NCBI GenBank assembly: GCA_963722305.1 | Contig: CAVRKE010000002.1 | Coordinates: 315,878 to 379,877, forward strand | Origin: Candidatus Levyibacteriota bacterium | Lineage (GTDB): Bacteria > Patescibacteriota > Microgenomatia > Levybacterales > UBA12049 | Direction: 5' to 3' | DNA: 64,000 nt | Shown here: positions 11,602 to 59,924 of the stretch, piece after piece | How positions within the stretch are numbered: position 1 is the first letter of the stretch | Layout of the letters: every line of letters begins with the position of its first letter | The notes under the pieces: generated by a model | The model's database searches: none | Told to the model about the DNA's origin: nothing | The model's input: the letters and a program-made list of their open reading frames with translations, nothing else | Made by a program: the position numbers and the translations under genes

Positions 11602-11603
11602 TT

Positions 11604-31730: not shown

Positions 31731-31733
31731 AAG

Positions 31734-32423: not shown

Positions 32424-32426
32424 AAG

Positions 32427-33749
32427 TTATCTTCCTGCTGCGGCACCGCCTGCTCCTCCTGTTCTGGTTGTTGCTGCCCCGCCTCCGCCGCCGCCAAACC
32501 CACCCAGTCTTAATCCGCCACTGAATGGCGATGATGTAGCCGATGAGGTTGTTGTGGCTGTAGAAATTGCACTGGTCACAACCGTCTCTCCTTCGGAAAG
32601 ACCGGAAGTAATTACTGTTTGTGAGCCTGAAGTGTCACCAACTTGAACCGAAACTGTTGAAACCTGCCCGTTTTTGAGAATTCTCACCGTCGAAGCAGAG
32701 CCAACCGTTTGTACTGCTGCCGACGGCACCAGTAAAACGTTATCATCCACTTTGGTAATAATGTTGGCCGTAGCAGTCATGTTCGGCAGAATACTGGTAT
32801 TAGAAGTATCATCCAATTGAATTACCGCCGGATAAGTCGTTACACCTGATGTCACAGCACCGGTGGTATCTAATCCCATCACCTTGCCGGTAAAAGTTTG
32901 ATTCGGTAAGGCGTCAAAAGTAATCGTGGCCGCTTGTCCGACTTGGATTTGGGGAGCGTCCACTTCTGCAACATTAACCGAGACTGCCGTCGAATTACCG
33001 GTGATAACCGAGGCTATTGTCTGATTCGAAGTATTGGTTGACGATCCGGCAGTGGTATTACTTGAACCAACCTGCATTCCTTTCGTAATTATCAAGTCAC
33101 CGACCGTTCCGCTGGTCGGAGCAGTAATTGTTCCCGAAGTTAACTGATAAGCCAGGGATGCATTGTTAACATTTGCCTGCGCTTGGGCAATAACATTTGT
33201 TTGATTTTCATAAGCCGCTTCAGCAGCCAGCCAATTCGCGTTTTCCTCGATATAAACCGGGTCTTGCATATCTTGAGTGGTCGGATTTGGAATTCCTTTG
33301 TCATTAATAAACTTTTGGTTGGCAACAAATTCCTGACTCTGCAAAGTATTTAATTGTGCATTGGCATTTTGCAGATTATTCTGGGCGGATAAAAGAGAGG
33401 AATAAGCTTGTGCCTGGCGCTGTTGTCCGGCTGTATCCAGTGTGACATCGGCTATTTTATCTCCAGCATTTACCATCTGTCCGCTTTTAACATAAACGTT
33501 GCTGACAATGCCGGAGGCCTGCGTGACAACGCTGACTTTGTTTGCCACCGACACTTGTCCCGCCTCGGTTAAAGAAACTACTAATGTCCCTCTGGTAACC
33601 TGCGCTGTTTGGTATTGGGTTGCGCTTTTAGAGGCAGTAAAGCTTCGGTAAACAAAAAAGGCAATGATAACTAAAACTATTACCAAAACAATTTTTGTTT
33701 TTGTCCCTAATTTTTTTATTCTGGTTAAAACCCCTTTTATAAAATTCAT
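32427..33749 (-). CDS. Efflux periplasmic adaptor (HlyD/MacA membrane-fusion family) with a Gly-rich C-terminal tail
   Basis: N-terminal TM, coiled-coil rich in Q/N/A, beta-barrel/lipoyl-like segments. Tail GGLRLGGFGGGGGGAATTRTGGAGG. Confidence 0.7.
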   Translation of the reverse strand: MNFIKGVLTRIKKLGTKTKIVLVIVLVIIAFFVYRSFTASKSATQYQTAQVTRGTLVVSLTEAGQVSVANKVSVVTQASGIVSNVYVKSGQMVNAGDKIADVTLDTAGQQRQAQAYSSLLSAQNNLQNANAQLNTLQSQEFVANQKFINDKGIPNPTTQDMQDPVYIEENANWLAAEAAYENQTNVIAQAQANVNNASLAYQLTSGTITAPTSGTVGDLIITKGMQVGSSNTTAGSSTNTSNQTIASVITGNSTAVSVNVAEVDAPQIQVGQAATITFDALPNQTFTGKVMGLDTTGAVTSGVTTYPAVIQLDDTSNTSILPNMTATANIITKVDDNVLLVPSAAVQTVGSASTVRILKNGQVSTVSVQVGDTSGSQTVITSGLSEGETVVTSAISTATTTSSATSSPFSGGLRLGGFGGGGGGAATTRTGGAGGAAAGR

Positions 33750-36448: not shown

Positions 36449-36558
36449 ATACTATATACTTAATACTTATAATATCACTTTTAGGAAAACCCATTTATTT
36501 TGCCTCACCACAAAAAATAAATCCTGAAGCCAAGCACTAGAATTACCGATTGAAGAAC

Positions 36559-36699
36559 CTATTTAGTAACCATTAGCACATAAAGAAAAACCAGTACGCC
36601 AACTGCAAAGATTGGCAGTAACCAGGTTAAATTCTTATGGCTGTCAAACAAGCTCTGGTAGCTTGGTTTTTTGGGCTTAGCCCTTTTTTTAGTTGCCAT
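36559..36699 (-). CDS. Possible small single-TM protein (46 aa, MATKKRAKPKKPSYQSLFDSHKNLTWLLPIFAVGVLVFLYVLMVTK). Below the ORF-track cutoff
   Basis: Open frame found by manual reading in an otherwise ORF-free region. Basic N-terminus plus hydrophobic helix looks protein-like, but there is no other support. Confidence 0.25.
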   Translation of the reverse strand: MATKKRAKPKKPSYQSLFDSHKNLTWLLPIFAVGVLVFLYVLMVTK

Positions 36700-36846
36700 G
36701 AATAAATCATGTCAGATAAAAAAAATGTTGTCAAGTGGTTTGTGATAACCAAGCGTAAAGAAAATTCAAATTTGAAGACTAACCCTTGCCATCTACTACT
36801 CAAAGGTAATTGCCTGCTTAAAACTCTAATTCATCCTTCCTGCAAG

Positions 36847-36992
36847 ACTACGCCTCAGTTCATGCCGAGCTAATCCTTAGCCTCGCTGCTTGCTATTTTT
36901 TTTGGGGGAAAAATGACATTATCCGCCTTCTCTCTCCTTAACCTAAAACTATCTTAATCCTGTCTGGCTAGAGCATGAACTGGGCGTAGTAT
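36847..36992. repeat. 19-bp imperfect inverted repeat (actacgcctcagttcatgc ... gcatgaactgggcgtagt) enclosing 107 bp. Candidate structured ncRNA or MITE-like relic
   Basis: Seen in sequence. 18/19 matches with one unpaired T. The interior contains a T8-G5-A5 homopolymer run. Confidence 0.5.
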
Positions 36993-37309
36993 AGTTTGCT
37001 TATATTTCCAAGAGCATTTTTTAATCTTAACGCTATTTCCGATAATTTCTTTCTCATGATTATCAACTCCCTTCTATTACTATTTTGCCACTGTAATGTT
37101 TATATAACACTAGATATAGAGCTTTCAGTAAGTAAAAACACTAAATAAGCGTATTGCAAATTACAAATGACCAACAGTCCTAAAAGGAATCTCAATCCTA
37201 TATACATTTCTGTCTTGACATTAAGAGATAGATATTGTCTACTAGAAATAGAGGTTATCTTTTGCCCTAGTTTAATTATGTGTAAAACACACAAGGATAA
37301 TCTATATAA

Positions 37310-39139
37310 ATGATTAAATTTATCGGTACCGCCCAACAGGATAATAAAGCACTTCTCTACTACGGCCAAAACGAAAATGGCAATCAATTCTTCAAATTCT
37401 CCACCAGCCCAGACGGAATTAAATTTACTGGAGAATCTAAGTACGCGTTTATATTTGACCAGATGCAACACGAAGAGCAGGATTATGATTGGAAAAGACT
37501 AAGACTCGCAAAACTGGGATCCGAATACTTAATCACTTACAAACTGAATTCAAAAACCAATTCCAGTGTCTTTGCTGCAACTTCAACCGATTTACTGCGC
37601 TGGCAAAAGATTGGAGAAATCGACAAAATCAAAGAAACAGCCACAATTGTTTCCGATTTTAGATATAAAGACCAATATGTGATGTATTTTGGCGAAAAAA
37701 ACATCAATATGGCAGTTTCACCTGATCTAAGAACCTGGATAGTTGATAAAAAAACCGTGCTCGAACCACGCAGCGATCATTTTGATAACCAAAATCTTGA
37801 GGTTGGTAATGTTTACGAGATTAATGGATTAATATTGTTAACTTATTACGTAAAAAAACCGGTTGGTAAATTGACTCATTATGCTGTCGGAGCAGCCTTT
37901 TTTGATAAAACAAACCCTGCCAAATGTCTCTGGCGGTCGGAAAATCCTATTTGGGAAAGTCCGCTTGAATTTAGCCAGCTGGAGATTACTCCTCTTGGCA
38001 GTGTAGTTTTAAATAATGAGCTTATTCTTCATTGGCTGATTGGAGATAGTCATATTTTTGCCGTTTCCTGCCAATTACCTGCACTAGATGATGCTAAATA
38101 CAATAAAGTATTTTCAAACTTGGTTAAAAAGCACAAAAACAATCCGATTATTACTCCGCGGCCGGACAGACCCTGGGAATCACGGGCAACCTTTAACAGT
38201 GCGGCAATTTATGAAGACGGAAAAGTCCATTTTCTCTATCGGGCACTTGGCGATAAAGATTTATCCGTTTTGGGCTATGCTTCAAGCAGTGACGGAGTAA
38301 CCATTGAAGAAAGATCGGAAGAACCGGCTTATATCCCCCGCGAACCGTTTGAAACACCGGGCAATAATGCTTTCAATACCTTTGCCGAACATTTTGCATC
38401 TGGCGGCGGATATGGCGGTATTGAGGACCCGAGAATTACCAAGATAGATAATAAGATTTACCTTACTTACGTGGCTTTTGACGGAACAAACCATCCAAGA
38501 GTGGCTATGTCCTCTATTGGTATCGAAGATTTTTTAGGAAAACAGTGGGATAAATGGAAGAAACCAAAGCTTATTTCTGCTCCCGGAATGATTAATAAGA
38601 GTGCTGTTATTTTGCCTAAAAAAGTCAATGGCAAATATGTTGTTTTCCACCGGGTTTATCCCAATATTTTAGTTGATTTTCTTGACGATTTGGAGTTCAG
38701 TAGCTATCTACAAGGCCATTATTTTATTCCTCCCCGAAAAAATTATTGGGACAGCAAAAAAGTCGGTGCGGGAGCACCGCCGATGGAAACCAAAGACGGC
38801 TGGCTGATGATCTACCAATCGGTTGGCTATCAAGACCCCAGCCGCTACAAAATTGGGGCAATGATGCTTGATAAAAATAACCCTGCAAAAGTTTTATACA
38901 GAACCCACACTCCGATTATCGAACCGGACGAGGCTTATGAAAATGAGGGTTTTAAAAGAGGCGTTGTCTATCCTTGCGGAGCAGTGATTATGAACAATCA
39001 ATTAAATGTCTATTACGGTGGCGCAGATACAGTCCTTTGCGCAGCCACTACACCTTTGGATGAATTCCTGGGCGCAATGAAACGCCATCAGGAACCAAAA
39101 CTTACAAAAGTTGCAAGCCCGCAATTTAACTTGAATTAA
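37310..39139 (+). CDS. Two-domain GH130-like protein (beta-mannoside phosphorylase/glycosidase family). Divergent N-terminal beta-propeller-like half plus canonical C-terminal GH130 domain
   Basis: C-terminal half carries GIEDPRITKID and YYGGADTV, the GH130 hallmark motifs. The N-terminal half has the same periodicity but degenerate motifs. Confidence 0.7.
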   Translation: MIKFIGTAQQDNKALLYYGQNENGNQFFKFSTSPDGIKFTGESKYAFIFDQMQHEEQDYDWKRLRLAKLGSEYLITYKLNSKTNSSVFAATSTDLLRWQKIGEIDKIKETATIVSDFRYKDQYVMYFGEKNINMAVSPDLRTWIVDKKTVLEPRSDHFDNQNLEVGNVYEINGLILLTYYVKKPVGKLTHYAVGAAFFDKTNPAKCLWRSENPIWESPLEFSQLEITPLGSVVLNNELILHWLIGDSHIFAVSCQLPALDDAKYNKVFSNLVKKHKNNPIITPRPDRPWESRATFNSAAIYEDGKVHFLYRALGDKDLSVLGYASSSDGVTIEERSEEPAYIPREPFETPGNNAFNTFAEHFASGGGYGGIEDPRITKIDNKIYLTYVAFDGTNHPRVAMSSIGIEDFLGKQWDKWKKPKLISAPGMINKSAVILPKKVNGKYVVFHRVYPNILVDFLDDLEFSSYLQGHYFIPPRKNYWDSKKVGAGAPPMETKDGWLMIYQSVGYQDPSRYKIGAMMLDKNNPAKVLYRTHTPIIEPDEAYENEGFKRGVVYPCGAVIMNNQLNVYYGGADTVLCAATTPLDEFLGAMKRHQEPKLTKVASPQFNLN

Positions 39140-39149
39140 GGCTAGTAAA

Positions 39150-41087
39150 ATGATCACACTAACGCGCGTCCCGGAAAATCCGATACTTACACCGCATAGC
39201 GAACATGACTGGGAGCATGACGGCTCATTTAATGGTTGTGTTGCCTATGCTAACGGCGCCTATCACATGGTTTATCGTGCTCTCTCCTACCCCAAGGAGC
39301 AAAACGGTGTCAACATGCAGGTTTCCTCCGTCGGCTATGCCAAAAGTGAAGATGGAATACATTTTGTCGACCACAGGCCAATCATTTTTCCGACAGAAGA
39401 TTGGGAAATTTACGGTTGTGAGGACCCAAGAATTACCTACATGGACGGAAGATTTTATATTTTTTATACTGCCCTTTCTGAGTTTCCCTTTAAACCACAT
39501 GGGATTAAGTTGGGACTGGCGGTAACTCGTGATTTTGAAGCTTTTGAAAAACACCCGGTTACCACCTTTAATTCAAAAGCCATGGCACTGTTTCCGGACA
39601 AAGTTAACGGTAAAATGACAGCGCTTTTAACCATGCATACGGATTTACCGCCGGCTAAAATTGCTCTGGCACAGTTTGACAGTCAGGAAGATATTTGGTC
39701 ACCGGTCTTTTGGACCCACTGGTATGATGATGCCAATACTCATATTATTAATCTACTGCGTGATATCCGTGACCAGGTTGAGTTGGGAGCCCCACCAATC
39801 AAAACCAACCGCGGTTGGCTGGTAATCTACTCTTACATTAAAAATTACATGTCAAACAATAAATCGTTTGGGATTGAGGCTATGCTTTTAGACGGCGACA
39901 ATCCGCGTAAAGTCATCGGCAGGACGGAAGGACCGCTTTTAATTCCCCAGGATAAATATGAGCTTGAAGGAAATGTACCAAACGTTGTTTTCCCATCCGG
40001 CGCGTTAGTTAAAGACGACGAGTTGTTTGTTTATTATGGCGCCGCGGATACCAACTGCGCTGTCGCAACTTGTGAACTTGAGGTACTGCTTGACGATCTA
40101 AAACCGGTCACAAATTCCGTTTCTACCAGTTTTGCTTTACCCGATACCGATAAGTTTGTCCGGTTTGAAGGAAATCCTATTATCACACCTATTTTGGAAT
40201 TGGATTGGCAAAAAAAGGGCACTTTTAATCCTGCCGCAGTTTACGCAAACGGAAGAGTCCATTTGGTTTACCGCTCCCAAAGCGCCGAAGGGACCTCCGT
40301 TTTAGGTTATGCTTCCAGCAAAGACGGTGTCACCATTGATGAAAGGTTAGATTATCCCATCTATACTCCCAGGGAAGATTTTGAGATGAAAATCAATCAG
40401 AAAGGTAATTCCGGCTGCGAAGATCCAAGAATTACAAAAATTAACGACCGTTATTTTATGACCTATACTGCTTACGACGGAGTTAATCCGCCAAGAGTGG
40501 CTTTAACTTCAATCTCTATTAATGATTTCTTAAATAAAAATTGGAATTGGGAAAAAGCAAAACTTATTTCTCCGCCGGGGGTCGATGATAAAGATTCTTG
40601 TATCGTCAAAAGAGTCAGAGGGGACGGTTATATTGCTTTCCATCGCTTAGGAGACGTTATCTGGATGGATAAATTAAGAGACCTGGATTTTCCGGAAAAG
40701 AAATTTTTATCCGGCGGGATTATCGCTCAACCCAGAAAAGACAAATGGGATAATGTAAAAGTCGGCATTGCCAGCCCGCCGATTGAGTCGGAACACGGTT
40801 GGATTCTTTTATACCATGCCGTTTCTAACCCGGGATTTCTTTATAAAGTTGGGGCAATGCTTTTGGATTATGATGATCCCAAAAACATACTCGCCCGCAC
40901 CAATGAACCGGTTTTTGAACCGGAAAAACCATATGAATTAAAAGGCAATGTGCCAAATGTTGTTTTCCCATGCGGCACTGTTACCATTGACGAAACCATT
41001 TATATGTATTATGGCGGTGCAGATAAGGTCATCGGCGTTGCCACCATGCCACTTCAGACACTGGTTGAAATTCTGCTTGGAAGATAA
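39150..41087 (+). CDS. Tandem-duplicated GH130 protein (two complete GH130 domains in one 645-aa polypeptide)
   Basis: Domain 1: GCEDPRITYMDGRFY ... VYYGAADTNCAV. Domain 2: GCEDPRITKINDRYF ... YYGGADKVIGVA. Confidence 0.75.
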   Translation: MITLTRVPENPILTPHSEHDWEHDGSFNGCVAYANGAYHMVYRALSYPKEQNGVNMQVSSVGYAKSEDGIHFVDHRPIIFPTEDWEIYGCEDPRITYMDGRFYIFYTALSEFPFKPHGIKLGLAVTRDFEAFEKHPVTTFNSKAMALFPDKVNGKMTALLTMHTDLPPAKIALAQFDSQEDIWSPVFWTHWYDDANTHIINLLRDIRDQVELGAPPIKTNRGWLVIYSYIKNYMSNNKSFGIEAMLLDGDNPRKVIGRTEGPLLIPQDKYELEGNVPNVVFPSGALVKDDELFVYYGAADTNCAVATCELEVLLDDLKPVTNSVSTSFALPDTDKFVRFEGNPIITPILELDWQKKGTFNPAAVYANGRVHLVYRSQSAEGTSVLGYASSKDGVTIDERLDYPIYTPREDFEMKINQKGNSGCEDPRITKINDRYFMTYTAYDGVNPPRVALTSISINDFLNKNWNWEKAKLISPPGVDDKDSCIVKRVRGDGYIAFHRLGDVIWMDKLRDLDFPEKKFLSGGIIAQPRKDKWDNVKVGIASPPIESEHGWILLYHAVSNPGFLYKVGAMLLDYDDPKNILARTNEPVFEPEKPYELKGNVPNVVFPCGTVTIDETIYMYYGGADKVIGVATMPLQTLVEILLGR

Positions 41088-41128: not shown

Positions 41129-41950
41129 ATGTTTTCCTTCCGAACAAAAATCATTATCTTAAGCATTCTCTTTTGTATTTCTCTAACCATCACCAAAACT
41201 GTATTTGCGCAAACGCCAACGGCAGCACAAAACACTTCAACAGCCGTTGAAGGAGCAGCAACTTTAGGTGTGGCCCATATCGTTGAAGTTGCGAATAACA
41301 ATATTCCGGACGGAAGTATTCTTTCTTCTTCAAAACAAGGCGCCGTACTGTCGACCATTCCCTATGATTCCCAAGTTTTAGGCATTGTTTCACGGGATGC
41401 GGCAATTATTTTAGATACTACCGGAGAAAAAAACGGTGTCCCCGTTATTTCGGTCGGCACAGTTTATATTTTGGTATCAACCCAACAAGGTTCGATTAAA
41501 AAGGGTGACACTCTGACTACCTCAACCATTCCCGGGGTGGCTGTCAAAGCGGTTAAGGACGGTTATGTTTTAGGCGAAGCTTTGGAAGATTATACAAACC
41601 CAAATATCAAACAAGTTGATAAAATGGCTGTTAATCTTGAGCTCCATTATTTTAACTCGAAACCAACCTTAGCCGGAACTTTATCGGATATTCTGAAACT
41701 GGTCGTTTTACCAACCCAAGAAGGACCCGGCCCAATCTTTAAATACCTGGTGGCGGCAGGGGTTGTACTGGCATCCCTTGCTCTAGGATTTCTAAGTTTT
41801 GGGCGAACAGCTGCCAAAGGCGTTGAGGCACTGGGAAGAAATCCGGCGGCAGGCAGAATTATTCAATTGGGAATTATTTTTAATGTTACTATCGTGGTGG
41901 TAATAGTTGCAGCCGGTTTAATTATCGGATTTTTAATTTTGCGGCTCTAA
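41129..41950 (+). CDS. Secreted protein with a C-terminal two-helix membrane hairpin
   Basis: Signal peptide ending TVFA-QT, then a ~200-aa soluble domain. C-terminal ...LASLALGFLSFGRTAAKGVEALGRNPAAGRIIQLGIIFNVTIVVVIVAAGLIIGFLILRL. Confidence 0.5.
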   Translation: MFSFRTKIIILSILFCISLTITKTVFAQTPTAAQNTSTAVEGAATLGVAHIVEVANNNIPDGSILSSSKQGAVLSTIPYDSQVLGIVSRDAAIILDTTGEKNGVPVISVGTVYILVSTQQGSIKKGDTLTTSTIPGVAVKAVKDGYVLGEALEDYTNPNIKQVDKMAVNLELHYFNSKPTLAGTLSDILKLVVLPTQEGPGPIFKYLVAAGVVLASLALGFLSFGRTAAKGVEALGRNPAAGRIIQLGIIFNVTIVVVIVAAGLIIGFLILRL

Positions 41951-41971: not shown

Positions 41972-43681
41972 ATGAAGCGCGAAAAACCGTTAACTTTTCA
42001 AAGTATATTTTTCCCTTTCACTACTAAGAAGGCAATTATTTTTATTATCCTTATTGGATTTGTCGTCTACTTTAATAGTCTGTTTAACGGGTTTGCTATC
42101 GATGACCTGGGATTAATTGTAACCAATCCGAACGTTCACACAATTGCTTCTATACCGGATATCTTCCTAAACTATACCCGAACTCAACTGGGAAGTAATA
42201 GACCGCTGCCAAGCTCTATTTATGCAATATTGTATACCTTCTTTCAAACAAACACCTTTGCCTACCATCTGATTCAAATTATTTTACATATCTCCAATGC
42301 CGTCCTTATTTTTATTATCTTCAAAAAATTCTTAAAACAGGGACTGTCTTTCTTTTTGGCTGTGCTGTTTTTGGTTCATCCGATTAATGAAGAAACAGTC
42401 GTATATATAGCAAATTTGCAGGATGTTTTGTTTGTTTTCTGCGGATTATTGTCATTATATCTTTTGCAAATAAATTCTAGATTAAGACACGTCATTTTTG
42501 CCAATATTTTATTGCTGATGAGCCTATTTTCCAAAGAAACGGCAATCCTTTTTCTAGCCGTTACATCTCTCTATGTCTATTTTTATAAAAAGAGCCGCTT
42601 ACTGCTGCATGGATTGTTTATGTTAATTATAAGTGCTATTTATATTTGCTTTAGATTGATTTCCAATTCTTCCGTTTTACCGGATCAATATGTTCCGATT
42701 ATGAGAATGTCACTTCCGGAAAGAATGGTTAACATACCCGCTATAATTTTATATTACATACGGATCTTGCTTTTCCCTAAAGACATGGTTGCTCTTCATT
42801 CTTGGGTAATCAGAGAGATACAATTTTCCAATTTTTTTCTTCCATTAATCATTGACCTTCTATTTATTGCTACTTTATCTTTAATGTTTATCTATATTTA
42901 CAGAAAAGAAAAAGACAGAAAACCGGTTATATTTTTTTCTGTATGGTTTTTGTGCGGATTAGTTCTTACTCTACAATTCATTCCGCTTAACGTAACTGTT
43001 GCAGATCGCTATTTTTATTTTCCTCTTATCGGTCTTTTGGCAATTATCGGCTTATTCTATCAAGCGATTAAACCAAAAAGAATTGAAAAGGTATTTTTAG
43101 TAATGGCAGTGGCTCTTTTGCTTGTGCTTTCTTTAAGGACTATGGTGAGAAATTCAAATTGGAAAAATCAATCTATACTACTTGCCCATGACGAAAAATT
43201 AGCTAAAAATGACTATTTACAAGAACTATCCTTTGGCCTAAACCTTATAGAGCAGAATAAATATAACCAGGCTTTCCCCCACGTACAACAAGCTATAAAT
43301 CTTTACCCCCAAAGCTGGAAAGCCTGGACAACCTTAGGTGCGCTGTACTACATAAAAGGTAACTTTCCCCAAGCGGAAAATGCTTATTTTAAAGTTATCT
43401 CAATTAGAAATTATTCTGTCGCCTATGAGGACTTGGCGCTAATTTTAATAAAATACGATAATATTATTAAGGCCAGAGATTTTATTAGAAAAGCTGTCAA
43501 GCTTTACCCAAATAGTCAGAAACTGTGGTTTTACAGTATAGTAACCGAAAACAAAACCGGTAATTATGCAAAGGCTTTACAATCCGCTAAAAATTATTAT
43601 GAATTAACAAAGGATAAAGAAGGATTAATTATTTATTCTCATTTGGAGCAAAAACTGCCAATAGATATAGAATTAAGATAA
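41972..43681 (+). CDS. GT-C fold membrane glycosyltransferase + C-terminal TPR repeats (TMTC/PMT_2-TPR-like), paralog 1
   Basis: Conserved N-terminus LTFQSIFFPFTTKKAI, loop-1 DD motif (GFAIDDLGLI), ~11 TM, and TPR-like C-terminus (NLYPQSWKAWTTLGALYYIKGNFPQAENAY...). Confidence 0.7.
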   Translation: MKREKPLTFQSIFFPFTTKKAIIFIILIGFVVYFNSLFNGFAIDDLGLIVTNPNVHTIASIPDIFLNYTRTQLGSNRPLPSSIYAILYTFFQTNTFAYHLIQIILHISNAVLIFIIFKKFLKQGLSFFLAVLFLVHPINEETVVYIANLQDVLFVFCGLLSLYLLQINSRLRHVIFANILLLMSLFSKETAILFLAVTSLYVYFYKKSRLLLHGLFMLIISAIYICFRLISNSSVLPDQYVPIMRMSLPERMVNIPAIILYYIRILLFPKDMVALHSWVIREIQFSNFFLPLIIDLLFIATLSLMFIYIYRKEKDRKPVIFFSVWFLCGLVLTLQFIPLNVTVADRYFYFPLIGLLAIIGLFYQAIKPKRIEKVFLVMAVALLLVLSLRTMVRNSNWKNQSILLAHDEKLAKNDYLQELSFGLNLIEQNKYNQAFPHVQQAINLYPQSWKAWTTLGALYYIKGNFPQAENAYFKVISIRNYSVAYEDLALILIKYDNIIKARDFIRKAVKLYPNSQKLWFYSIVTENKTGNYAKALQSAKNYYELTKDKEGLIIYSHLEQKLPIDIELR

Positions 43682-43686
43682 TATTT

Positions 43687-45441
43687 ATGACAACCCAAGA
43701 TGACAACAAAGAGCAAGGATTAACTTTTAAGAGTTTATTCTTCCCTCTGACTACCAAAAAAATTGTCGCTATAATTACCGGCGTCGGGTTTTTGGTGTAC
43801 TTTAATATCCTCTTTAACGGTTTTGTCTGGGACGATTTGACTTATATCATCGGCAATACCGACTTAAAACCTTTTTACCTGTTGAAACTAATGGGCGGGA
43901 ACACTTTTAATTCAAGCGGCTATTACCGTCCGCTGCCGGCTATTTATTTTTCTATCCTTTATAACCTTTTTGATAACTCCGCTTTTTTCTATCACTTTAT
44001 CCAATTATCTTTGCATGTTGTTTGCGCTATTTTGCTGTTTTTTATTTTTAGGAAATTTTTCAAAAAGACCTTAGCCTTGGTTATTGCTCTTATTTTTCTT
44101 GTCCATCCGATTAACGTTGAATCTGTTGCCTATATCGGAGCTTCGCAGAGCGAGCTTTATTTTCTTTTTGGTGGACTGGCTTTTTACTTATGTCTTAAAG
44201 ACGTTTTGGAAAATAAAAAAATATTTTTTGTCCATATACTATTATTACTGGCGCTTTTGACTAAGGAAGTTTCAGTTTTATTCTTTTTTCTAATTTATTT
44301 TTACCGTTGGCTTTATAAAAAGGGGCTTTCAAAAATATTTTTCTTGTCTTCTGTGGTTACATTCTTTACTTATTTAAGTATCCGCTTTTGGGGATTGGGG
44401 GGAACCATTCTTGAAAAAATGCATCTTATTCCTATTTCGGAAATTTCTCTCTTGGCAAGAATAACAAATATTCCGATTATATTTTTTTATTATTTGAAAA
44501 CTTTCTTTTTACCCGTAACTTTAGTTATCGACCAAATCTGGACGATCAAAACAATCGATTTTGGGAATTTTTATTTTCCGCTTATTGTTGACGTATCTTT
44601 TTTAATTTTTATTTTTGCCGCTCTCTTTTATTTTATCCGTAAAAAGAATCCTGACTGGAAACCATTTTTATTTTTTATGATTTGGTACTTGCTAAGCATG
44701 AGCTTACTTTTGCAAATATTTCCCTTGGATATGACTGTTGCCGACCGTTGGTTTTATTTTCCGATGGTCGGGATTTTGGGGATGATGGGAATTTTAGCTA
44801 AGCAGGTTTTACCGCAAATTTTGAAAAAGTATTCGGTCTTGGCGTTAAGCGCGCTGATAGTGTTGTTGGTTGTTTTATCGCTTCGGACAATGATTAGAAA
44901 CGCCGACTGGTATAGCATATTTACGCTTTATTCAAAAGATACAACAGTTTATCCAAATTACGACCTGGAAGATTTTCTTGGTGCATATTTGGTTGGGTTA
45001 AAGGATTACCAGGGAGCAAAATATCATTTCGAAAAATCCGTGCAACTTCTTCCTCATGACACTAATATGTTTAATCTGGGCTCTGTTTATGAAACCCTTG
45101 GAGACTATAAGAAAGCAATGACTTATTATCAAGAAGCCCTTGACGTCAAGAACAAATACTCAATCCATACAGATGTCAGACGGGTTGCTTATATAGGCTT
45201 GGGAAGATTAATTCTTCTTCACGAACATCCGACAACCATTGTTCCTCAACTAAAAAATGCCACAGAAGAATTTCCAAGCAATGGCACATTTTGGGCATAC
45301 CTGGCAATTAATCAATATTTTGCAAATCAAGACAAACAAGCCTTAATTTCCGCCAAGAAAGCAATAACTTTATTCCCGAATGAGTATACCAATCAACTTT
45401 ATCAAAAAATTTTGCATAAACAAGCACTAATGCTGCAATAG
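43687..45441 (+). CDS. GT-C + TPR membrane glycosyltransferase, paralog 2
   Basis: LTFKSLFFPLTTKK..., GFVWDDLTYI, C-terminal TPRs (LGSVYETLGDYKKAMTYYQEAL). Confidence 0.7.
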   Translation: MTTQDDNKEQGLTFKSLFFPLTTKKIVAIITGVGFLVYFNILFNGFVWDDLTYIIGNTDLKPFYLLKLMGGNTFNSSGYYRPLPAIYFSILYNLFDNSAFFYHFIQLSLHVVCAILLFFIFRKFFKKTLALVIALIFLVHPINVESVAYIGASQSELYFLFGGLAFYLCLKDVLENKKIFFVHILLLLALLTKEVSVLFFFLIYFYRWLYKKGLSKIFFLSSVVTFFTYLSIRFWGLGGTILEKMHLIPISEISLLARITNIPIIFFYYLKTFFLPVTLVIDQIWTIKTIDFGNFYFPLIVDVSFLIFIFAALFYFIRKKNPDWKPFLFFMIWYLLSMSLLLQIFPLDMTVADRWFYFPMVGILGMMGILAKQVLPQILKKYSVLALSALIVLLVVLSLRTMIRNADWYSIFTLYSKDTTVYPNYDLEDFLGAYLVGLKDYQGAKYHFEKSVQLLPHDTNMFNLGSVYETLGDYKKAMTYYQEALDVKNKYSIHTDVRRVAYIGLGRLILLHEHPTTIVPQLKNATEEFPSNGTFWAYLAINQYFANQDKQALISAKKAITLFPNEYTNQLYQKILHKQALMLQ

Positions 45442-45527
45442 TTAAATAATTTATGCATCACCGGAGTAATGATATTGCAATGATAGATTGTTTAAACTAA
45501 TATTTATACGCCCGGTGCCTTTTACAT

Positions 45528-47537
45528 ATGCTTAATTATTTCTTCCTTTATGGAAAACGTTTAAGAGCAGAAATTATTATTTTCCTATCTTCCTTAATTG
45601 TTTACTGTTTGATGCTTTCGCATTCTGTCGTACTTGGTGATAGTGGTGAATTTTTAACTGCTGCCGCTATTAACGGTGTCCCTCATGATCCGGGTTTTCC
45701 CTTATACAGTTTGCTTACCAGGATTTTTTTCTTGCTAGGACATAGTGCCTGGGCCGTTAATCTTACTTCCGCTATTTTTGCTTCTTTAGCTCTTACCTTT
45801 ACCTATCGTTTGGTAAAAACCATGACGGGAAATGGTTCGGCCGCATTATTTGCCACACTTTCGCTTGGCACTTACGAGTTCTTCTGGTTTTATGCTTTGG
45901 TGGTGCAAATCCATACGTTACAAGTTTTTATTTTATCCCTTCTTTACCTTTCTCTAGTGTATTTTTTAAAAACCGGGAAGCTTAAATATCTATATTTAAC
46001 CGGTATTGCCTTCGGTCTAGGAATGACCAATAGTCAAACCATAGTTCTTGCTTTACCAAGTATTTTTATCGCTCTTTTTTTTATGCGCAAAATTATTTCT
46101 TGGCGCGTCGTTGTAAAACTAGTGGCTTTTTCGGTTTCTTGTCTTTTGCTTTATTTTTATACGTTTATCTCTGCCTCCTTTAGGCCCGCCTTAAATTGGG
46201 GACAAATTCACGATTTACAAAGTTTAGCACATATGTTTTTCCGCATGGACTACGGCACTTTTAACCTAACTTCCGGAAATCTATCCGCTCCTTTTATTTA
46301 TTCATCTTTTGTTTATTATCTTGAAGTTATGATAAAAAGCGGTTGGCTGGTTTTGCTCTTTGCTTTAATTTCACTTTATTATTTAAAGAAAAAAGACGCT
46401 ACTTACTTAGCTATTCTTTTTGGGCTTTTATTCAACGGTCCTTTTTACTATCTAATTATGAATCAACATATCTTTTCGGTAGTTTACAAAGCAAACGTAG
46501 AGCAATACCTGTCTTACTCATTCTTTTTTGTGGCGGTATTAGGAGGATTGGGATTTTATATTCTGACCAGTCGTTATAAAATAGACTCAAAAGTTTTATA
46601 TCTTATCGCTTTCCTTTTATTTGTTCCACTGTTTTTCATTAATCTTGGAAAAATAAATTTAAGCAGGAATAATTTGGTTTCGGAAACTACAAAATTTCAG
46701 TTCTCGCAAATTCCTAAAGATGGCATTGTTTTAACCGTCGGTGACGACTTTTATTTCCCATCCCTTTATCTTCAAAATCTTGAACGGTTTAGAACCGACA
46801 TCACGGTAATTGATCTAGGATTACCGGAAAGCTGGTATCAAGATTCGGTTTTTAAAAAAAGACCGGAACTTGCTTCTTATTTTAATAATTCCGGTCCCGA
46901 TTATATAAAATTCTGTCAATATTTTTCAGCCCAAGGCAAATTATTTATCTATCCCTGGTATCCCGATTACGATGTTTATTTTAAAAATAAATGTGACATT
47001 ATTCCCTACGGACTTTTGGCCAAAGTTGTTCCCAAAAATCAAGCCGGAAATATTTCGGCAATAAAAAATTACAACGACGAATCATGGGTAAACTATTTAA
47101 AAATCGCTTCCTTGGAAAGTTACAAAAATAGTACGCAAAGGTCCAGAGAAGAGTTATTTCTTTTGGCCGAACAAAAAAATTTTATCGGAATTTATTATAA
47201 CCGCAGCGGCAAACAAAGCTGGGCGTTAAACGAATTTGTTGAAGCAAGGACAATTTCTTTGGATGAATATTATTCTTTTTTAAACGAAGCTGAAATTTAT
47301 TTTGAAAAAGGAAATTATAAGAAAGCTGCCGATTTGCTTGAGAAGGCTATTGCCCGCGAACCAAATGCTTCCGACTTGTATTACTCTTTGGGCATCATAA
47401 ATGTCAAACTGAATAACTTGGATAAAGCTTATGAAAACTTTAAGGACTATAGTGATTTTAATCCTCCGGCCGACGAAAGACTCAAAAATGCCCAGGATTT
47501 TATTCAACAGTATCAAACAACAAATAACGTTTTATAA
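45528..47537 (+). CDS. GT-C + TPR membrane protein of a different subfamily (DUF2723/TMEM260-like, GDSGEF motif)
   Basis: N-terminal ...LGDSGEFLTAAAINGVPHDPGFPLY. Polytopic membrane protein with TPR-like C-terminus (YYSLGIINVKLNNLDKAYENF). Confidence 0.6.
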   Translation: MLNYFFLYGKRLRAEIIIFLSSLIVYCLMLSHSVVLGDSGEFLTAAAINGVPHDPGFPLYSLLTRIFFLLGHSAWAVNLTSAIFASLALTFTYRLVKTMTGNGSAALFATLSLGTYEFFWFYALVVQIHTLQVFILSLLYLSLVYFLKTGKLKYLYLTGIAFGLGMTNSQTIVLALPSIFIALFFMRKIISWRVVVKLVAFSVSCLLLYFYTFISASFRPALNWGQIHDLQSLAHMFFRMDYGTFNLTSGNLSAPFIYSSFVYYLEVMIKSGWLVLLFALISLYYLKKKDATYLAILFGLLFNGPFYYLIMNQHIFSVVYKANVEQYLSYSFFFVAVLGGLGFYILTSRYKIDSKVLYLIAFLLFVPLFFINLGKINLSRNNLVSETTKFQFSQIPKDGIVLTVGDDFYFPSLYLQNLERFRTDITVIDLGLPESWYQDSVFKKRPELASYFNNSGPDYIKFCQYFSAQGKLFIYPWYPDYDVYFKNKCDIIPYGLLAKVVPKNQAGNISAIKNYNDESWVNYLKIASLESYKNSTQRSREELFLLAEQKNFIGIYYNRSGKQSWALNEFVEARTISLDEYYSFLNEAEIYFEKGNYKKAADLLEKAIAREPNASDLYYSLGIINVKLNNLDKAYENFKDYSDFNPPADERLKNAQDFIQQYQTTNNVL

Positions 47538-47585
47538 ACTTTTGTCAGACTTGCAAATTAAATCTACTCAGACTAATATTTATCC

Positions 47586-49352: not shown

Positions 49353-49386
49353 TATTTTGAATTAGTTTGTATACTTAACTTGGAAA

Positions 49387-51168: not shown

Positions 51169-51183
51169 GAGCATTAAAAGGAT

Positions 51184-52926: not shown

Positions 52927-52973
52927 AATTAAATGATATTGTAAGTTAATTTTCCCAATGTTAATATTGGTTC

Positions 52974-54788: not shown

Positions 54789-55424
54789 ATGCCCAACCTG
54801 CTCTTTCAGTTCATTTCAATCACGGCTGACCTTGTAATTTTTATCTTCATTGGCTTTTACCTTTGGAGACTCCGAAGAGAAGAAAAAGAGCTAAAAAACA
54901 AAGAAACCAAGGTTGACACAAGTTACCACGAAATCGTTAATGACGCCTTAAGTAAAGAAAGAAAAATTATGGAAGATGCTGTCGGTGAAGCCGATCAAAT
55001 CATTATTAATGCCGAATATATTAAAAAATCATCCAAAGAAATCGTTGACCAAGCCTTGCAACAGATGGTTGCCCATATTCAAAAAGAGTCGATTGAAACA
55101 GCCAGTCGGTTTATGAACAGCTATTCCGATTCATTAAAAAAACTGGCTACTACCTCGCTTATCGATTTTGAAAATGTGGCCAGGGGTCTGGAAGGAGACC
55201 TGCAAAGACAAATTAAGGAATTTCGAGAAACTTTACTTCCCGATTTAAAAAAAGAGCTCGATGATTATAAGCAAGTACGCCTAAAGCAATCCGAGGAGAT
55301 TATTAATCATGTTATCCAAAAAGCCTCACAGGAAATCATGAATAAGGCGATCTCTTTGGATGACCACCAAAAATTGCTGACCGATGCCCTGGAAAGGGCA
55401 AAAACGGAGGGGGTGTTTGATTAG
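54789..55424 (+). CDS. atpF: F-type ATP synthase subunit b
   Basis: N-terminal single TM, then a ~180-aa charged coiled coil. Positioned first in the atpFHAGDC block. Confidence 0.65.
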   Translation: MPNLLFQFISITADLVIFIFIGFYLWRLRREEKELKNKETKVDTSYHEIVNDALSKERKIMEDAVGEADQIIINAEYIKKSSKEIVDQALQQMVAHIQKESIETASRFMNSYSDSLKKLATTSLIDFENVARGLEGDLQRQIKEFRETLLPDLKKELDDYKQVRLKQSEEIINHVIQKASQEIMNKAISLDDHQKLLTDALERAKTEGVFD

Positions 55425-55970
55425 TTGGAAGAGCTAGATTTGTCGGATTTTTTTCATACAAAGGCAGAGGCAAATGATTTTTCAATTCACCTTTCGCAAA
55501 TTTCAGAAAGCATATATAAAACCGGTTTTAATCTGGAAAAAGAACTCACCGAGCATTTTGGTGTCGAAAAAAAGGATAAATTCATTTCGCTTCTAAGAAA
55601 TAATAAGGTTAATATCTATTCAAGCCCCGACTTAAAAACCTTTCTTGATAAAATTCAAGCAATAATTGCCAACCTTCCGCTGCTTTCTCTGGTGATTGCT
55701 TTTGAGCCAAACGAAGAAACACTAAAGTCTCTTTCCGAATGGCTTTTTTTAAATACGCACAAAGAGGTTTTGCTCGATATTACTGTTGACAGCAAAATCA
55801 TTGGCGGTGCAACCATTAGTTTTAACGGTAAATACACTGACTGTTCGATTAAAACTAAATTTGACCAGATTTTTCAAGATGTTTGGGCCAATAAACCGAC
55901 GACATCTGAAAAGATTGTTCTTCCCCATGGAGACCATCAAAGTGTTGAACATATTGTGGTTAGTAGATAA
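55425..55970 (+). CDS. atpH: F-type ATP synthase subunit delta (OSCP)
   Basis: 181 aa. C-terminal ...VDSKIIGGATISFNGKYTDCSIKTKFDQ matches the OSCP C-domain. Synteny supports the call. Confidence 0.7.
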   Translation: MEELDLSDFFHTKAEANDFSIHLSQISESIYKTGFNLEKELTEHFGVEKKDKFISLLRNNKVNIYSSPDLKTFLDKIQAIIANLPLLSLVIAFEPNEETLKSLSEWLFLNTHKEVLLDITVDSKIIGGATISFNGKYTDCSIKTKFDQIFQDVWANKPTTSEKIVLPHGDHQSVEHIVVSR

Positions 55971-55986
55971 AGCATAAATCGAAGAT

Positions 55987-57456
55987 ATGGATACAGAATT
56001 TAACCAATCATTGAAAAAGACAGGAGAATACGGAATTGTTTATCAAGTCAGCCACCCGATTGTTTTTATTGAAGGCTTACCGTTAGTCAGAGCCCATGAA
56101 GTAATTGAGTTTGAAAGTGGACAAAAGGGCGAAGTTTTTACTATTGACCACGGCAACGTGGAAGCAAGAGTTTTTTCCCATGAACCGATTAAAGTCGGAA
56201 CAAAAGTGACCAGAACAGACAGGTTATTGTCAATCCCGGTCGGAAAGGAACTTCTAGGACACGCCATTAATCCTCTGGGAGAGCCTTTGGACCAAAACGT
56301 AAAAATTACTCCGCCAAAAGAATTCCGTGAACTGGAATCAAACCCGATAGGTATTTCCGGCAGGAAAAAAATTACCGTCCAGCTAACAACCGGAATTTCT
56401 TTAGTAGACTTACTCCTGCCTTTAGGTAGAGGACAAAGAGAGTTGATTATCGGAGACCGTAAAACTGGAAAAACTTCTTTTTTAATGACCACCATTAAAA
56501 AACAGGCTTATGAAGGAGTAGTTTGTATTTATGTCGCCATCGCCAAGAAAAAAAGCGATATTAAAAAACTGCAGGAATTTTTTGTGCAGGAAAAAATTAT
56601 GGATAAGGTAATCATTGTCGCAACCAGTTCTTATGACTCGCCAACGCTTATTTACCAGACCCCTTACGCCGCCATGACTATTGCCGAATATTTTCGCGAC
56701 CAGGGAATACATACCTTGCTTATTCTTGATGATCTGTCGACTCACGCCAAGTTCTATCGTGAATTGTCCCTTTTAGCCAGACGTTTTCCCGGCCGTGATT
56801 CATACCCCGGTGATATCTTTTTCGTCCACTCAAGCCTTCTGGAAAGAGCCGGGAACTTTAAACACCCGACGGCCGGGGAAGTTTCAATCACTTGCCTACC
56901 GGTAATTGAAATTATCGAAGGAGATTTTACCGGTTACATCTCAACTAATGTCATGGGAATTACCGACGGCCACATTTATCTTGACAGCAATATTTACTAT
57001 CAGGGCATGCGACCGGCCATCAATATCCCCTTATCTGTTACCCGTGTCGGCAGACAAACTTTAAGTCAACTGTCGCGCGAAATTAATAAAAACCTGACCA
57101 CGTTTTTGTCTTCATACGATAAGCTGCAAAACCTGTCTCATTTTGGTCAAGAACTAACCGATGACGTTAAAAATACTCTCAGGCTTGGACAACTAATTTA
57201 TAATTTTTTTAACCAACCTTACCAAATGGTTGTCCCAAAAATTGTCCAAATGATTATTTTGTCAATGATTTTGCAAAACATCGTCACCGATAAAGACGTT
57301 CTTAAAACGATTCAAACCGGCTTAATTGCCGCCTTTTACGACCGTGGAAAACAAAAATTGCTTTATGATATTGTTAATACCAACGATTTAAAAATTTTTA
57401 ACCAAAACGTCTTAAATAATAAAGACAAATTATTTGATTTGGCAAAGACAAAATAA
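55987..57456 (+). CDS. atpA: F-type ATP synthase subunit alpha
   Basis: GDRKTGKTSF (Walker A of alpha), RLLSIPVGKELLGHAINPLGEPLD, DDLSTHA. Slightly short at 489 aa. Confidence 0.93.
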   Translation: MDTEFNQSLKKTGEYGIVYQVSHPIVFIEGLPLVRAHEVIEFESGQKGEVFTIDHGNVEARVFSHEPIKVGTKVTRTDRLLSIPVGKELLGHAINPLGEPLDQNVKITPPKEFRELESNPIGISGRKKITVQLTTGISLVDLLLPLGRGQRELIIGDRKTGKTSFLMTTIKKQAYEGVVCIYVAIAKKKSDIKKLQEFFVQEKIMDKVIIVATSSYDSPTLIYQTPYAAMTIAEYFRDQGIHTLLILDDLSTHAKFYRELSLLARRFPGRDSYPGDIFFVHSSLLERAGNFKHPTAGEVSITCLPVIEIIEGDFTGYISTNVMGITDGHIYLDSNIYYQGMRPAINIPLSVTRVGRQTLSQLSREINKNLTTFLSSYDKLQNLSHFGQELTDDVKNTLRLGQLIYNFFNQPYQMVVPKIVQMIILSMILQNIVTDKDVLKTIQTGLIAAFYDRGKQKLLYDIVNTNDLKIFNQNVLNNKDKLFDLAKTK

Positions 57457-57459
57457 GTT

Positions 57460-58347
57460 ATGGCGCAAAAAAAACTAATCGTTGAAGAGCTGGAAGCCTT
57501 AAACAGTTTAAAAGACCTGGCGGAAAGTTATGAAGAAATAGCAGCTATCGAAATGCAAAAAATTAGAGACTCGGTTTTGAAAACCCGCGAGTTTTTGATA
57601 GATATTTCCGATGTTTTTGTTGACCTAAAAGCCTCTTACACCAGAGAGGTGAATGATTTAATTGCCCGACGGAAAAAGGGGGACAAAAGCATATTACCGA
57701 TCCTGCAAAAAATCAATAAAGTATTAATGGTTTATTTATCGTCAAACGGAAAGCTCTATGGACCAGTTACCCAGAAAACTTTTAGGCTTTTTAGCGAAAG
57801 CCTTAAAAAAACAGACCCAAGTAGCACCGACCTTGTGATTATCGGCAATGCCGGTAAGGAATTGTATGAAAATGCAATGATTCAGAGAAAGTTTGAATAT
57901 TTTGAAATTCCCGATACCAAAGTTAATATTCAACACATCAAGAAACTGATGCAAAAATTTTTACAGTACGAAAAAGTTTATGTTTATTATGGAAAGTTTG
58001 GGAATCTGGTTACGCAATCTCCAATATTCACCAGTATTACCGGCGAGGATATTTTTGAAACCGAAAAGGTGACCCCGGTTCCCCGTGAAGATCGCTTTAT
58101 TTTTGAGCCCACCCTTGAGAAAATTTTTCATTTTTTTGAAACACAAATTATGACAAACTTATTCAGTCAAACACTGCTGGAGAACCAACTGGCCCGTGAT
58201 GTCTCCAGGGTAAACGCCATGGAAGAAGCCTTGTTAAACATCGAGGAAGAATCAAAAAAATTAAACCGAATTAGTCTTCGTTTAAAACACGCGCTGTCCA
58301 ATAAAAAACAGCTGGAAACTATTTCGGGGTTGTTGTTGTGGACATAA
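57460..58347 (+). CDS. atpG: F-type ATP synthase subunit gamma
   Basis: 295 aa. N-terminal ...LKDL..SYEEIAAIEMQKIRD and C-terminal coiled coil (RISLRLKHALSNKKQLETISGLLL). Synteny supports the call. Confidence 0.8.
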   Translation: MAQKKLIVEELEALNSLKDLAESYEEIAAIEMQKIRDSVLKTREFLIDISDVFVDLKASYTREVNDLIARRKKGDKSILPILQKINKVLMVYLSSNGKLYGPVTQKTFRLFSESLKKTDPSSTDLVIIGNAGKELYENAMIQRKFEYFEIPDTKVNIQHIKKLMQKFLQYEKVYVYYGKFGNLVTQSPIFTSITGEDIFETEKVTPVPREDRFIFEPTLEKIFHFFETQIMTNLFSQTLLENQLARDVSRVNAMEEALLNIEEESKKLNRISLRLKHALSNKKQLETISGLLLWT

Positions 58348-58427
58348 GGTGTAAAAAATTAATGAATATTTATATTATTCAAGAATTACAATTTAGTATA
58401 CAAATAAATATAAATTTATTTACATAA

Positions 58428-59924
<1,497 letters not shown>

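Follow-up and report, generated by a model that had tools for sequence, protein, structure and literature searches.

Two adjacent genes of a Levyibacteriota bacterium encode four GH130-type domains and a putative β-1,2-mannoside turnover module

Two tandem GH130 proteins at one locus

We analyzed two adjacent genes, here called O1 and O2, in a 64,000-nucleotide stretch (the window, to which all coordinates refer) of contig CAVRKE010000002.1 from Candidatus Levyibacteriota bacterium (assembly GCA_963722305.1). The genes lie on the same (+) strand with 10 nt between them (Table 1). A preliminary description of this DNA had proposed that they encode four GH130-like domains. The open reading frames (ORFs) proved exact, and each half of each protein matched the GH130 profile of Pfam, PF04041. 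The whole proteins matched this profile with E-values of 2.8e-64 (O1) and 4.8e-101 (O2, in two stretches). When the halves were searched alone, the N-terminal half of O2 (E = 6.5e-46, profile positions 20-316 of 320), its C-terminal half (E = 1.2e-54, positions 34-318 of 320) and the C-terminal half of O1 (E = 1.1e-49, positions 3-319 of 320) were covered nearly end to end. The match of the N-terminal half of O1 was partial, spanning about two thirds of the profile (E = 7.7e-15, positions 55-266 of 320). As had been described, both O2 domains carry the family hallmarks, with GCEDPRIT at residues 89-96 and 422-429, YYGAAD at 295-300 and YYGGAD at 620-625.

Competing Pfam families scored weakly on the same proteins (E = 1e-4 to 1e-5). 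GH43 reached 24.7 bits against a cut-off of 32.2, and GH32N reached 22.2 bits on the whole protein and 21.6 bits on a half alone against a cut-off of 22.1. We rejected a GH43, GH32 or GH117 identity, as these matches lie at or below their cut-offs with E-values tens of orders of magnitude weaker than those for GH130; the assignment to GH130 in the preliminary description was thus borne out when this check was run.

Table 1. Positions of the GH130 genes, their domains and neighboring features in the 64,000-nucleotide window.
Feature	Position	Strand	Description and basis
O1 gene (609 residues)	37310..39139	+	ORF; degenerate N-terminal GH130 propeller, helical linker, β-1,2-phosphorylase-like C-terminal GH130
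O1 N-domain (residues 1-258)	37310..38083	+	GH130-derived, predicted catalytically dead; first part of the fold missing
O1 C-domain (residues 272-592)	38123..39085	+	GH130 with β-1,2 signature; alignments to Teth514_1788/1789
O2 gene (645 residues)	39150..41087	+	ORF; hydrolase-like GH130 and canonical β-1,2-mannoside-phosphorylase-type GH130 in tandem
O2 N-domain (residues 1-318)	39150..40103	+	HMMER and MAFFT alignments; conservation in 121 + 80 sequences
O2 linker (residues 320-332)	40107..40145	+	only O2 segment with pLDDT < 50
O2 C-domain (residues 335-645)	40152..41084	+	alignments to 7fip and 9fj8, E about 2e-55
U273 gene (273 residues)	41129..41950	+	next gene 3' of O2; ORF
PMT_2 (GT-C) and C-terminal TPR array	41972-54704	+	seven tandem paralogues; Pfam
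Array paralogue	49387-51168		no Pfam match
ATP synthase genes	54789..59924		
VKOR gene to O1 gap	36449-37309		860 nt
MacB-type exporter set	30510-33749		upstream of O1
Further PMT_2 genes	9946-13181, 13183-15438		

To view the domains in three dimensions, we modeled both proteins with AlphaFold from 32-sequence alignments. The O2 model had a mean predicted local distance difference test score (pLDDT) of 90.7 and a predicted TM-score (pTM) of 0.63, with two all-beta domains joined by a disordered linker at residues 320-332. The O1 model (mean pLDDT 88.7, pTM 0.76) likewise contained two all-beta domains, joined by a helical linker at residues 259-271. The top Foldseek match of both models was Teth514_1788 (9fj8/9gph), with a TM-score of 0.86-0.90 relative to the target, each whole-protein alignment covering one propeller-sized region of approximately 312-331 columns without specifying the domain. 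Evidence that each domain, including the O1 N-domain, folds separately comes from secondary structure, pLDDT and the sequence profiles. No solved chain covering both domains was found among the Foldseek matches for O1 and O2. By sequence, the nearest solved relatives were 7fip, a β-1,2-mannobiose phosphorylase, and 9fj8, a β-1,2-oligomannan phosphorylase, with E-values down to 1e-63. A single domain with long insertions was rejected because the profile matched twice at full length and the models contain two propellers, and the earlier proposal that O2 is a true tandem fusion stands on the same two results. Collectively, these data confirm that O1 and O2 comprise four GH130-type five-bladed propeller domains, arranged as a true tandem in each protein.

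Automatic pipelines name O1 and O2 homologues β-1,2-mannobiose or β-1,2-oligomannan phosphorylase. Against the NCBIfam equivalog for β-1,2-mannobiose phosphorylase (NF052550, cut-off 450 bits), O2 scored 456 bits, though only as the sum of its two domains, and O1 scored 288 bits; a free-standing protein of the O2 N-domain type scored 181 bits. Because no single domain approaches the cut-off, we advise against transferring the equivalog name, and the automatic label "β-1,2-mannobiose phosphorylase" suits at most one of the four domains.

Catalytic and phosphate-binding residues of the four domains

The preliminary description had held that the choice between phosphorylase and hydrolase turns on the basic phosphate ligands. 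We scored these residues in all four domains, and the answer differed from domain to domain (Table 2). Residue roles were taken from three studies (PMC7660257, PMC12814180, PMC4599007), with the numbering of Uhgb_MS and BT3780 checked against HMMER alignments. In GH130 enzymes, an Asp acts as proton donor, an Arg/His pair binds phosphate, and a Glu/Lys pair in the +1 subsite marks β-1,2 specificity (PMC7660257). Our references were Asp104 of UhgbMP and Asp142 of BT3780 for the proton donor, the positions of Tyr103 and Arg150 of UhgbMP for the Glu/Lys pair, and Arg168 and His231 of UhgbMP together with Arg202 and Arg242 of Uhgb_MS (the latter as the third basic residue) for the phosphate ligands. 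The key residues of Uhgb_MS are Arg47, Glu136, Asp137, Lys184, Arg202 and Arg242, plus the L2 loop (PMC12814180). Conservation was assessed in close-homologue sets of 121 sequences each for O1 and O2 (the query and 120 homologues) and in 80 loci kept from a genome scan that used one genome per species.

Table 2. Residues at the active-site positions of the four domains.
Domain	+1 Arg	+1 Glu	Acid Asp	β-1,2 Lys	-1 Asp	Phosphate Arg site	Third basic site	Phosphate His site
O2 C	Arg375	Glu424	Asp425	Lys481	Asp625	Arg499	Lys537	His556
O1 C	Arg311	Glu372	Asp373	Lys430	Asp573	Arg448	Lys484	Gln503
O2 N	Arg43	Glu91	Asp92	Lys143	Asp300	Thr161 or Thr164	Gln209 (Gln/His)	Ser228
O1 N	lost	Trp61	Lys62		Asp246 (Asp/Glu/Asn among homologues)	Gly128 (Gly of the hydrolase "WGE" motif)	Asn162 (variable)	Tyr180

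The C-domain of O2 holds the complete residue set of a β-1,2-mannoside phosphorylase. Its sites are invariant or nearly so in the 121 homologues and the 80 loci, the exceptions being His556, which is Asn in 1 of the 121, and Lys537, which is Arg in 15 of the 80. The C-domain of O1 has the same set with Gln503 in place of the phosphate-binding His. This Gln is present in 119 of the 121 homologues, and the remaining key sites are invariant or nearly so. Across the 80 loci, the O1-like upstream partner carries His, Gln or Tyr at this site, and some partners belong to another subtype, in which the phosphate Arg site is Ser or Asn. The β-1,2 Glu/Lys pair is invariant in all three catalytic domains (Glu91/Lys143, Glu424/Lys481 and Glu372/Lys430), as are the catalytic residues Asp92 and Asp425 of O2 and Asp373 of O1 among their homologues.

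The N-domain of O2 keeps the sugar-binding and acid residues and has a different phosphate site. The preliminary description had counted two complete GH130 domains in O2; both are present, but the N-domain lacks the phosphate-binding residues and the two copies are not equivalent. The three phosphate positions are occupied by Thr, Gln/His and Ser/Ala/Cys in 200 sequences, and the phosphate Arg is replaced by Thr whichever alignment register is used. Within the same 200 sequences, Asp92, Glu91, Arg43, Lys143, Asp300, Glu211, Thr164 and Asp165 are invariant. A precedent for such a site is the hydrolase BT3780, which has none of the three basic phosphate residues and in which Glu227 and Glu268 provide the base; its E268Q mutant retains 0.4% activity, and GH130 hydrolases have been defined in print by loss of the three basic residues together with gain of new carboxylates (PMC4599007). 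Glu211 of O2 lies two residues past the lost basic residue, at a position occupied by Gly in phosphorylases and by Glu268 in BT3780, and was aligned on Glu268 by two ungapped HMMER alignments and by hhalign.

The invariant Thr164-Asp165-x-Pro-Pro motif lies within an L2 loop five residues longer than that of the Teth514 enzymes, and a helical insertion follows at approximately residues 177-198. An ungapped alignment places Met/Ile162 at the position of BT3780 Glu227, with Asp165 three residues beyond. An equivalence of Asp165 with Glu227, obtained from phmmer and MAFFT, was withdrawn when hmmalign, hhalign and a broader MAFFT alignment disagreed.

In profile scoring, the Teth514 enzymes, and not the GH130_3 hydrolases, came out as the closest relatives of all three catalytic domains. 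For the O2 N-domain profile, Teth514_1788 (GH130_6 type) scored 208 bits and BACOVA_02161 (GH130_3) scored 114 bits. The hydrolase-like site of this domain would therefore be convergent, and it appears to have arisen within the phosphorylase lineage, separately from GH130_3. In its predicted working, the domain resembles GH130_3 without belonging to it.

Sequence conservation of the O2 N-domain matched that of its neighbor: mean identity to the 120 homologues was 70% for the N-domain and 71% for the C-domain. A search of the N-domain against 1.84 billion representative proteins returned free-standing proteins of 320-340 residues that share its signature of Thr, Asp-loop, Glu and Ser (Cys, Ala). 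Because its conservation equals that of the C-domain and free-standing relatives occur, the O2 N-domain type appears to be a distinct GH130 clade under selection and not a decaying copy.

The N-domain of O1 presents a different picture. The preliminary description had called it a degenerate copy that might have lost catalytic residues, and inspection of the alignments agreed: Trp61-Lys62 replace the catalytic Glu-Asp pair, these positions vary among the 121 sequences, and the +1-subsite Arg is lost. The domain keeps "MYFGE" (with Glu129) and Glu164, which mimic both glutamate motifs of the hydrolases. Its mean identity to homologues is 49%, compared with 77% for the O1 C-domain, and it scores 73-74 bits to hydrolase and phosphorylase references alike. 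These features point to a fast-evolving, probably catalytically dead GH130 remnant.

Distribution of the pair and its genomic neighbors

The genome scan matched at least 599 stretches, and at least 589 species genomes encode a relative of O2 of the fused type; in each of the 80 loci kept, the alignment spans practically all 645 residues. Intramolecular GH130 fusions had been described as unusual. They are rare in CAZy, where 6 of 1592 GH130 entries are multimodular and GH130-GH130 is the rare exception (PMC7660257), but the number of genomes found here does not bear out the description. One of our loci (L075) belongs to a complete Wolfebacteria genome from 2015, so the GH130-GH130 entries of CAZy may be the same proteins as the O2 type. 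Our literature search found no paper that deals with the O2 fusion, the difference between its active sites, the gene that accompanies it or how widely it occurs.

The close homologues occur in bins named Levyibacteriota or Patescibacteria. They comprise 120 full-length relatives of O1 (58-100% identity) and relatives of O2 that are all approximately 640 residues long (66-94% identity). These homologues place the window in a Microgenomates-type bacterium of the Candidate Phyla Radiation (CPR), in keeping with its other genes. The record titles of the 80 loci name many CPR lineages, Dehalococcoidia/Chloroflexi, Omnitrophota and the cultured Bacteroidota species Arthrospiribacter ruber (L034). 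Many bins with the CPR-typical pair are titled Gammaproteobacteria, Eisenbacteria, Methylomirabilota, Rhizobiaceae and so on. Such titles are probably wrong, and the taxonomic spread is for that reason unreadable from titles alone.

In 72 of the 80 loci, the gene immediately upstream of the O2 relative is O1-like and has the same orientation. Among the other eight, two have no upstream room on the contig, five have opposite-strand or unassigned ORFs in the non-overlapping ORF set, and only one (L009) clearly has an unrelated upstream gene. In Microgenomates-type genomes, and in certain others, the partner has approximately 600 residues and includes the dead N-domain; the remaining loci often have a single-domain partner of 340-470 residues. 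Natural triple fusions in the order O1 C-domain, O2 N-domain, O2 C-domain also occur (P0119, 1110 residues; P0244, 971 residues), the first of which additionally retains a fragment of the dead N-domain at residues 35-86. The gene order equals the domain order of these fusions, which is good evidence that the O1 and O2 proteins act together. The protein search with the O2 N-domain returned, besides the free-standing relatives and P0244, a protein (P0247, 645 residues) that has the two O2 domains in reversed order, C-domain before N-domain.

Several loci depart from the common arrangement. A locus from a Doudnabacteria bin (L029) has a third GH130 gene encoding 293 residues (9105-9986) between the O1-like and O2-like genes. 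Two O2-type genes, one in a record titled Chloroflexi (L046, 3227-6640) and one in a record titled Dehalococcoidaceae (L047, 1753-4935), encode an extra C-terminal region of approximately 420-470 residues with no Pfam match.

Downstream of O2, U273 encodes a protein with a signal-peptide-like N-terminus and a C-terminal two-helix hydrophobic hairpin (GVEALGRNPAAGR), for which neither Pfam nor NCBIfam gave a family match. This hairpin shows a weak resemblance to subunit c of ATP synthase (PDB 3v3c and 4bem; E = 0.54, whole c subunit covered). U273 adjoins ATP synthase genes in five related loci (L001, L003, L004, L020 and L071), and in relatives it occupies the usual place of the a and c genes, directly upstream of those for the b-like, delta, alpha, gamma and beta subunits. 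U273 probably travels with the ATP synthase genes and falls outside the GH130 module.

Genes related to mannose phosphate metabolism recur beside the pair. A mannose-6-phosphate-isomerase cupin adjoins it in 13 of the 80 loci, and HAD phosphomannomutase-like and small cytidylyltransferase-like genes stand beside the isomerase in some. No sugar importer or polysaccharide-utilization locus recurred beside the pair, and in the Arthrospiribacter and Chloroflexi carriers, outside the CPR, no such locus and no transporter was found near it. A MacB permease, ABC ATPase and HlyD-type exporter set lies just upstream of the pair in eight loci (L023, L037, L055, L061, L062, L064, L074 and L080) from several distant lineages, as well as upstream of O1 in the window. 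Such sets are often accompanied by genes for a DUF5666 protein and for a sigma factor. Their position beside the pair could reflect inherited gene order or a functional link.

The gap upstream of O1 separates it from a divergently oriented VKOR gene and contains no credible ORF. We rejected the idea that this gap hides a phosphomannose isomerase gene or another small gene, since the only ORFs there are short and unsupported. Shuffled sequence had promoter-like and terminator-like sites at least as often as the gap, and tRNA and Rfam scans of the whole window yielded zero matches.

A candidate turnover module and its known relatives

On the observed fold, family, residue patterns, conservation and gene linkage of the pair, we propose that O1 and O2 form an operon-like cytoplasmic module for β-1,2-mannoside turnover that combines phosphorylase-type and hydrolase-type domains, a reading to which we assign a probability of roughly 0.55. 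Its activities, substrate and direction of flux are predictions from sequence. Phosphorylases of this type lack a signal peptide and work in the cytoplasm, where phosphate can be had. As judged by eye, neither the N-terminus of O1 (MIKFIGTAQQDNK) nor that of O2 (MITLTRVPENPIL) has the hydrophobic leader of a signal peptide. The O2 C-domain would act as a reversible phosphorylase of the Teth514_1788/1789 type (mannoside(n) + phosphate <-> α-mannose-1-phosphate + mannoside(n-1)), with Asp425 donating a proton through a 3-OH relay and with phosphate held by Arg499, Lys537 and His556. The O1 C-domain may be a second such phosphorylase, probably with another chain-length or donor preference, as for the two Thermoanaerobacter paralogues. 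The O2 N-domain would bind mannose in subsites -1 and +1 and keep the acid Asp92 without holding phosphate. With Glu211 at the position of the catalytic base, it would be a hydrolase, cleaving what the phosphorylases cannot finish or start. The O1 N-domain would serve as a non-catalytic structural remnant, and three differently specialized catalytic GH130 domains and one dead domain would together form one module. The mannose-1-phosphate produced could pass through phosphomannomutase and mannose-6-phosphate isomerase to fructose-6-phosphate and enter glycolysis.

Several points weigh against this proposal. Hydrolysis wastes the bond energy that phosphorolysis saves, and we know of no natural source of β-1,2-mannosides for these organisms. 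Phosphomannomutase and mannose-6-phosphate isomerase genes were not found within the window, and no sugar importer lies consistently near the pair in the 80 loci. As for the O2 N-domain, the second base of BT3780, Glu227, appears to have no firm counterpart, the placement of Asp165 being method-dependent, and the profile scores place the domain nearer the GH130_6 phosphorylases than the GH130_3 hydrolases. Finally, attempts to tell phosphorylases, transferases and hydrolases apart by their residues are known to fail in GT108, a related family (PMC10913872).

The same set of domains could instead serve an internal β-1,2-mannan reserve, built and then phosphorolyzed or trimmed in the manner of mannogen, as a carbon and energy buffer in minimal fermenters. 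We consider this unlikely. All tested β-1,2 GH130 phosphorylases are reversible and also show weak guanosine diphosphate-mannose transferase activity, although the authors of that study doubt its physiological relevance (PMC12814180), and the O2 N-domain has acidic residues where the phosphate of a nucleotide sugar would sit. Leishmania has a paralogous GH130-like set with graded transferase and phosphorylase activity that was acquired from bacteria (PMC10913872). The cytoplasmic appearance of the module, the absence of a linked importer, and the retention of the pair in at least 589 genomes, mostly very small, would suit a reserve. The cytidylyltransferase-like gene beside the phosphomannomutase-like and isomerase genes is the only recurrent neighbor that fits biosynthesis, but such a nucleotidyltransferase neighbor is present in only about 5 of the 80 loci, and the literature search found no β-1,2-mannan reported in these bacteria. 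A broader version, in which the pair would be the core of a bacterial counterpart of the mannogen cycle, kept throughout the CPR as a main store of carbon and energy, and the O2 N-domain an independently evolved hydrolase or non-phosphate GH130 clade, strikes us as improbable. Equally doubtful is a non-enzymatic O2 N-domain that binds sugar or stands in structurally for the second subunit of a dimer, presenting the mannoside to the C-domain. Teth514_1788 and Uhgb_MS are dimeric with an interface that shapes the active site (PMC12814180), the phosphate site of the domain is lost, and the O1 N-domain shows that GH130 domains persist without catalytic residues. However, the catalytic residues and the new Glu211, Thr164 and Asp165 are invariant, at a level of conservation equal to that of the active-type C-domain and unlike that of the dead O1 N-domain. 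The free-standing proteins with the same signature indicate that the domain needs no fused partner, and since the O2 linker is disordered and the pTM is only 0.63, a fixed pseudo-dimer is unsupported.

The preliminary description had also paired the GH130 genes with the adjacent O-mannosyltransferase-like array (the PMT_2 and TPR genes), which suggested that they recycle or make β-mannosides. The array begins 885 nt past the O2 stop codon on the same strand, between U273 and the ATP synthase genes, and the layout is identical in a 94%-identical relative. This relative is the only one to share it: in four others (L001, L003, L004 and L020; O2 69-72% identical), O1, O2 and U273 are followed by the ATP synthase genes with collinear flanks and no array between them. 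A PMT_2-like neighbor of any kind was found in just 2 of the 80 loci, and the GH130 pair is conserved across lineages whatever its neighbors. The array is a lineage-specific insertion and not a conserved partner of the pair. PMT and other GT-C enzymes act outside the membrane on polyprenyl-phosphate-mannose and yield α-mannosides; the GH130 proteins, by contrast, are cytoplasmic by appearance and carry a β-1,2 signature. We regard the proposed link as very improbable. Two further PMT_2 genes and a DUF2298 gene lie approximately 30 kb upstream in the window.

The turnover module that we favor is ordinary in fold and family and unusual in its architecture and in the apparent switch of mechanism within one polypeptide. 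GH130 is a textbook case for reading a phosphorylase or hydrolase mechanism from a few residues, and a source of enzymes for β-mannoside synthesis. O2 appears to unite a site of phosphorylase type and one of hydrolase type within a single polypeptide, an apparent natural experiment in mechanism switching. The module is also among the few sugar-active gene sets retained throughout a very large assemblage of uncultured bacteria with reduced genomes. A complete Microgenomates genome is reported to encode only five glycoside hydrolases, two of which are GH130 (PMC7143001), so the identity of the substrate would reveal what these cells eat or store. The cultured carrier A. ruber opens the question to experiment.

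Comparison with known systems places the pair among several partial counterparts. The GH130-GH130 entries in CAZy have the same architecture as O2, in a survey that took sequences as single modules and left the second domain unexamined (PMC7660257). Like O1 and O2, the Leishmania proteins MTP1-7 (GT108) are a set of paralogous propellers of GH130-like type whose phosphate pockets differ by degrees, and they act jointly on a cytoplasmic β-1,2-mannan. Unlike O1 and O2, they are separate proteins of a eukaryote, belong to GT108, and differ by an Arg/His switch rather than by loss of all basic residues; their polymer is mannogen, whereas for O1 and O2 a polymer is hypothetical. The GH130_3 β-1,2-mannosidases BT3780 and BACOVA_03624 (5a7v and 3qc2; PMC4599007) share with the O2 N-domain the absence of basic ligands, the retained β-1,2 Lys and Glu-Asp pair, and a Glu at the position of Glu268, and the BT3780-type "MY(W/F)GE" motif that holds Glu227 is also found in the O1 N-domain. 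In contrast to these Bacteroides enzymes, which are part of yeast-mannan loci whose products are secreted or periplasmic, the O2 N-domain is apparently cytoplasmic and fused to a phosphorylase, and it carries a helical insertion and an invariant Thr-Asp-x-Pro-Pro loop of its own.

The best matches of all three catalytic domains are the GH130_6 enzymes of Thermoanaerobacter sp. X-514, Teth514_1788 (β-1,2-oligomannan phosphorylase, 9fj8) and Teth514_1789 (β-1,2-mannobiose phosphorylase, 7fip). Identity to these proteins is only approximately 34-36% (Foldseek). The Teth514 enzymes are dimeric single-domain proteins of approximately 300 residues, whereas the domains of O1 and O2 are fused in tandem. 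The O2 N-domain differs further in lacking the whole phosphate site and the O1 C-domain in having Gln for the phosphate His, and the C-domains contain extra loops, with 5-6 residues before the Lys and, in the O1 C-domain, approximately 12-18 before the catalytic motif. Shared by both systems are the five-bladed propeller and the Glu-Asp, Lys and Arg residues of the sugar site. The O2 C-domain additionally has the same phosphate ligands and a short L2 loop, and in Thermoanaerobacter, as here, the two enzymes are encoded by an adjacent pair of paralogous genes.

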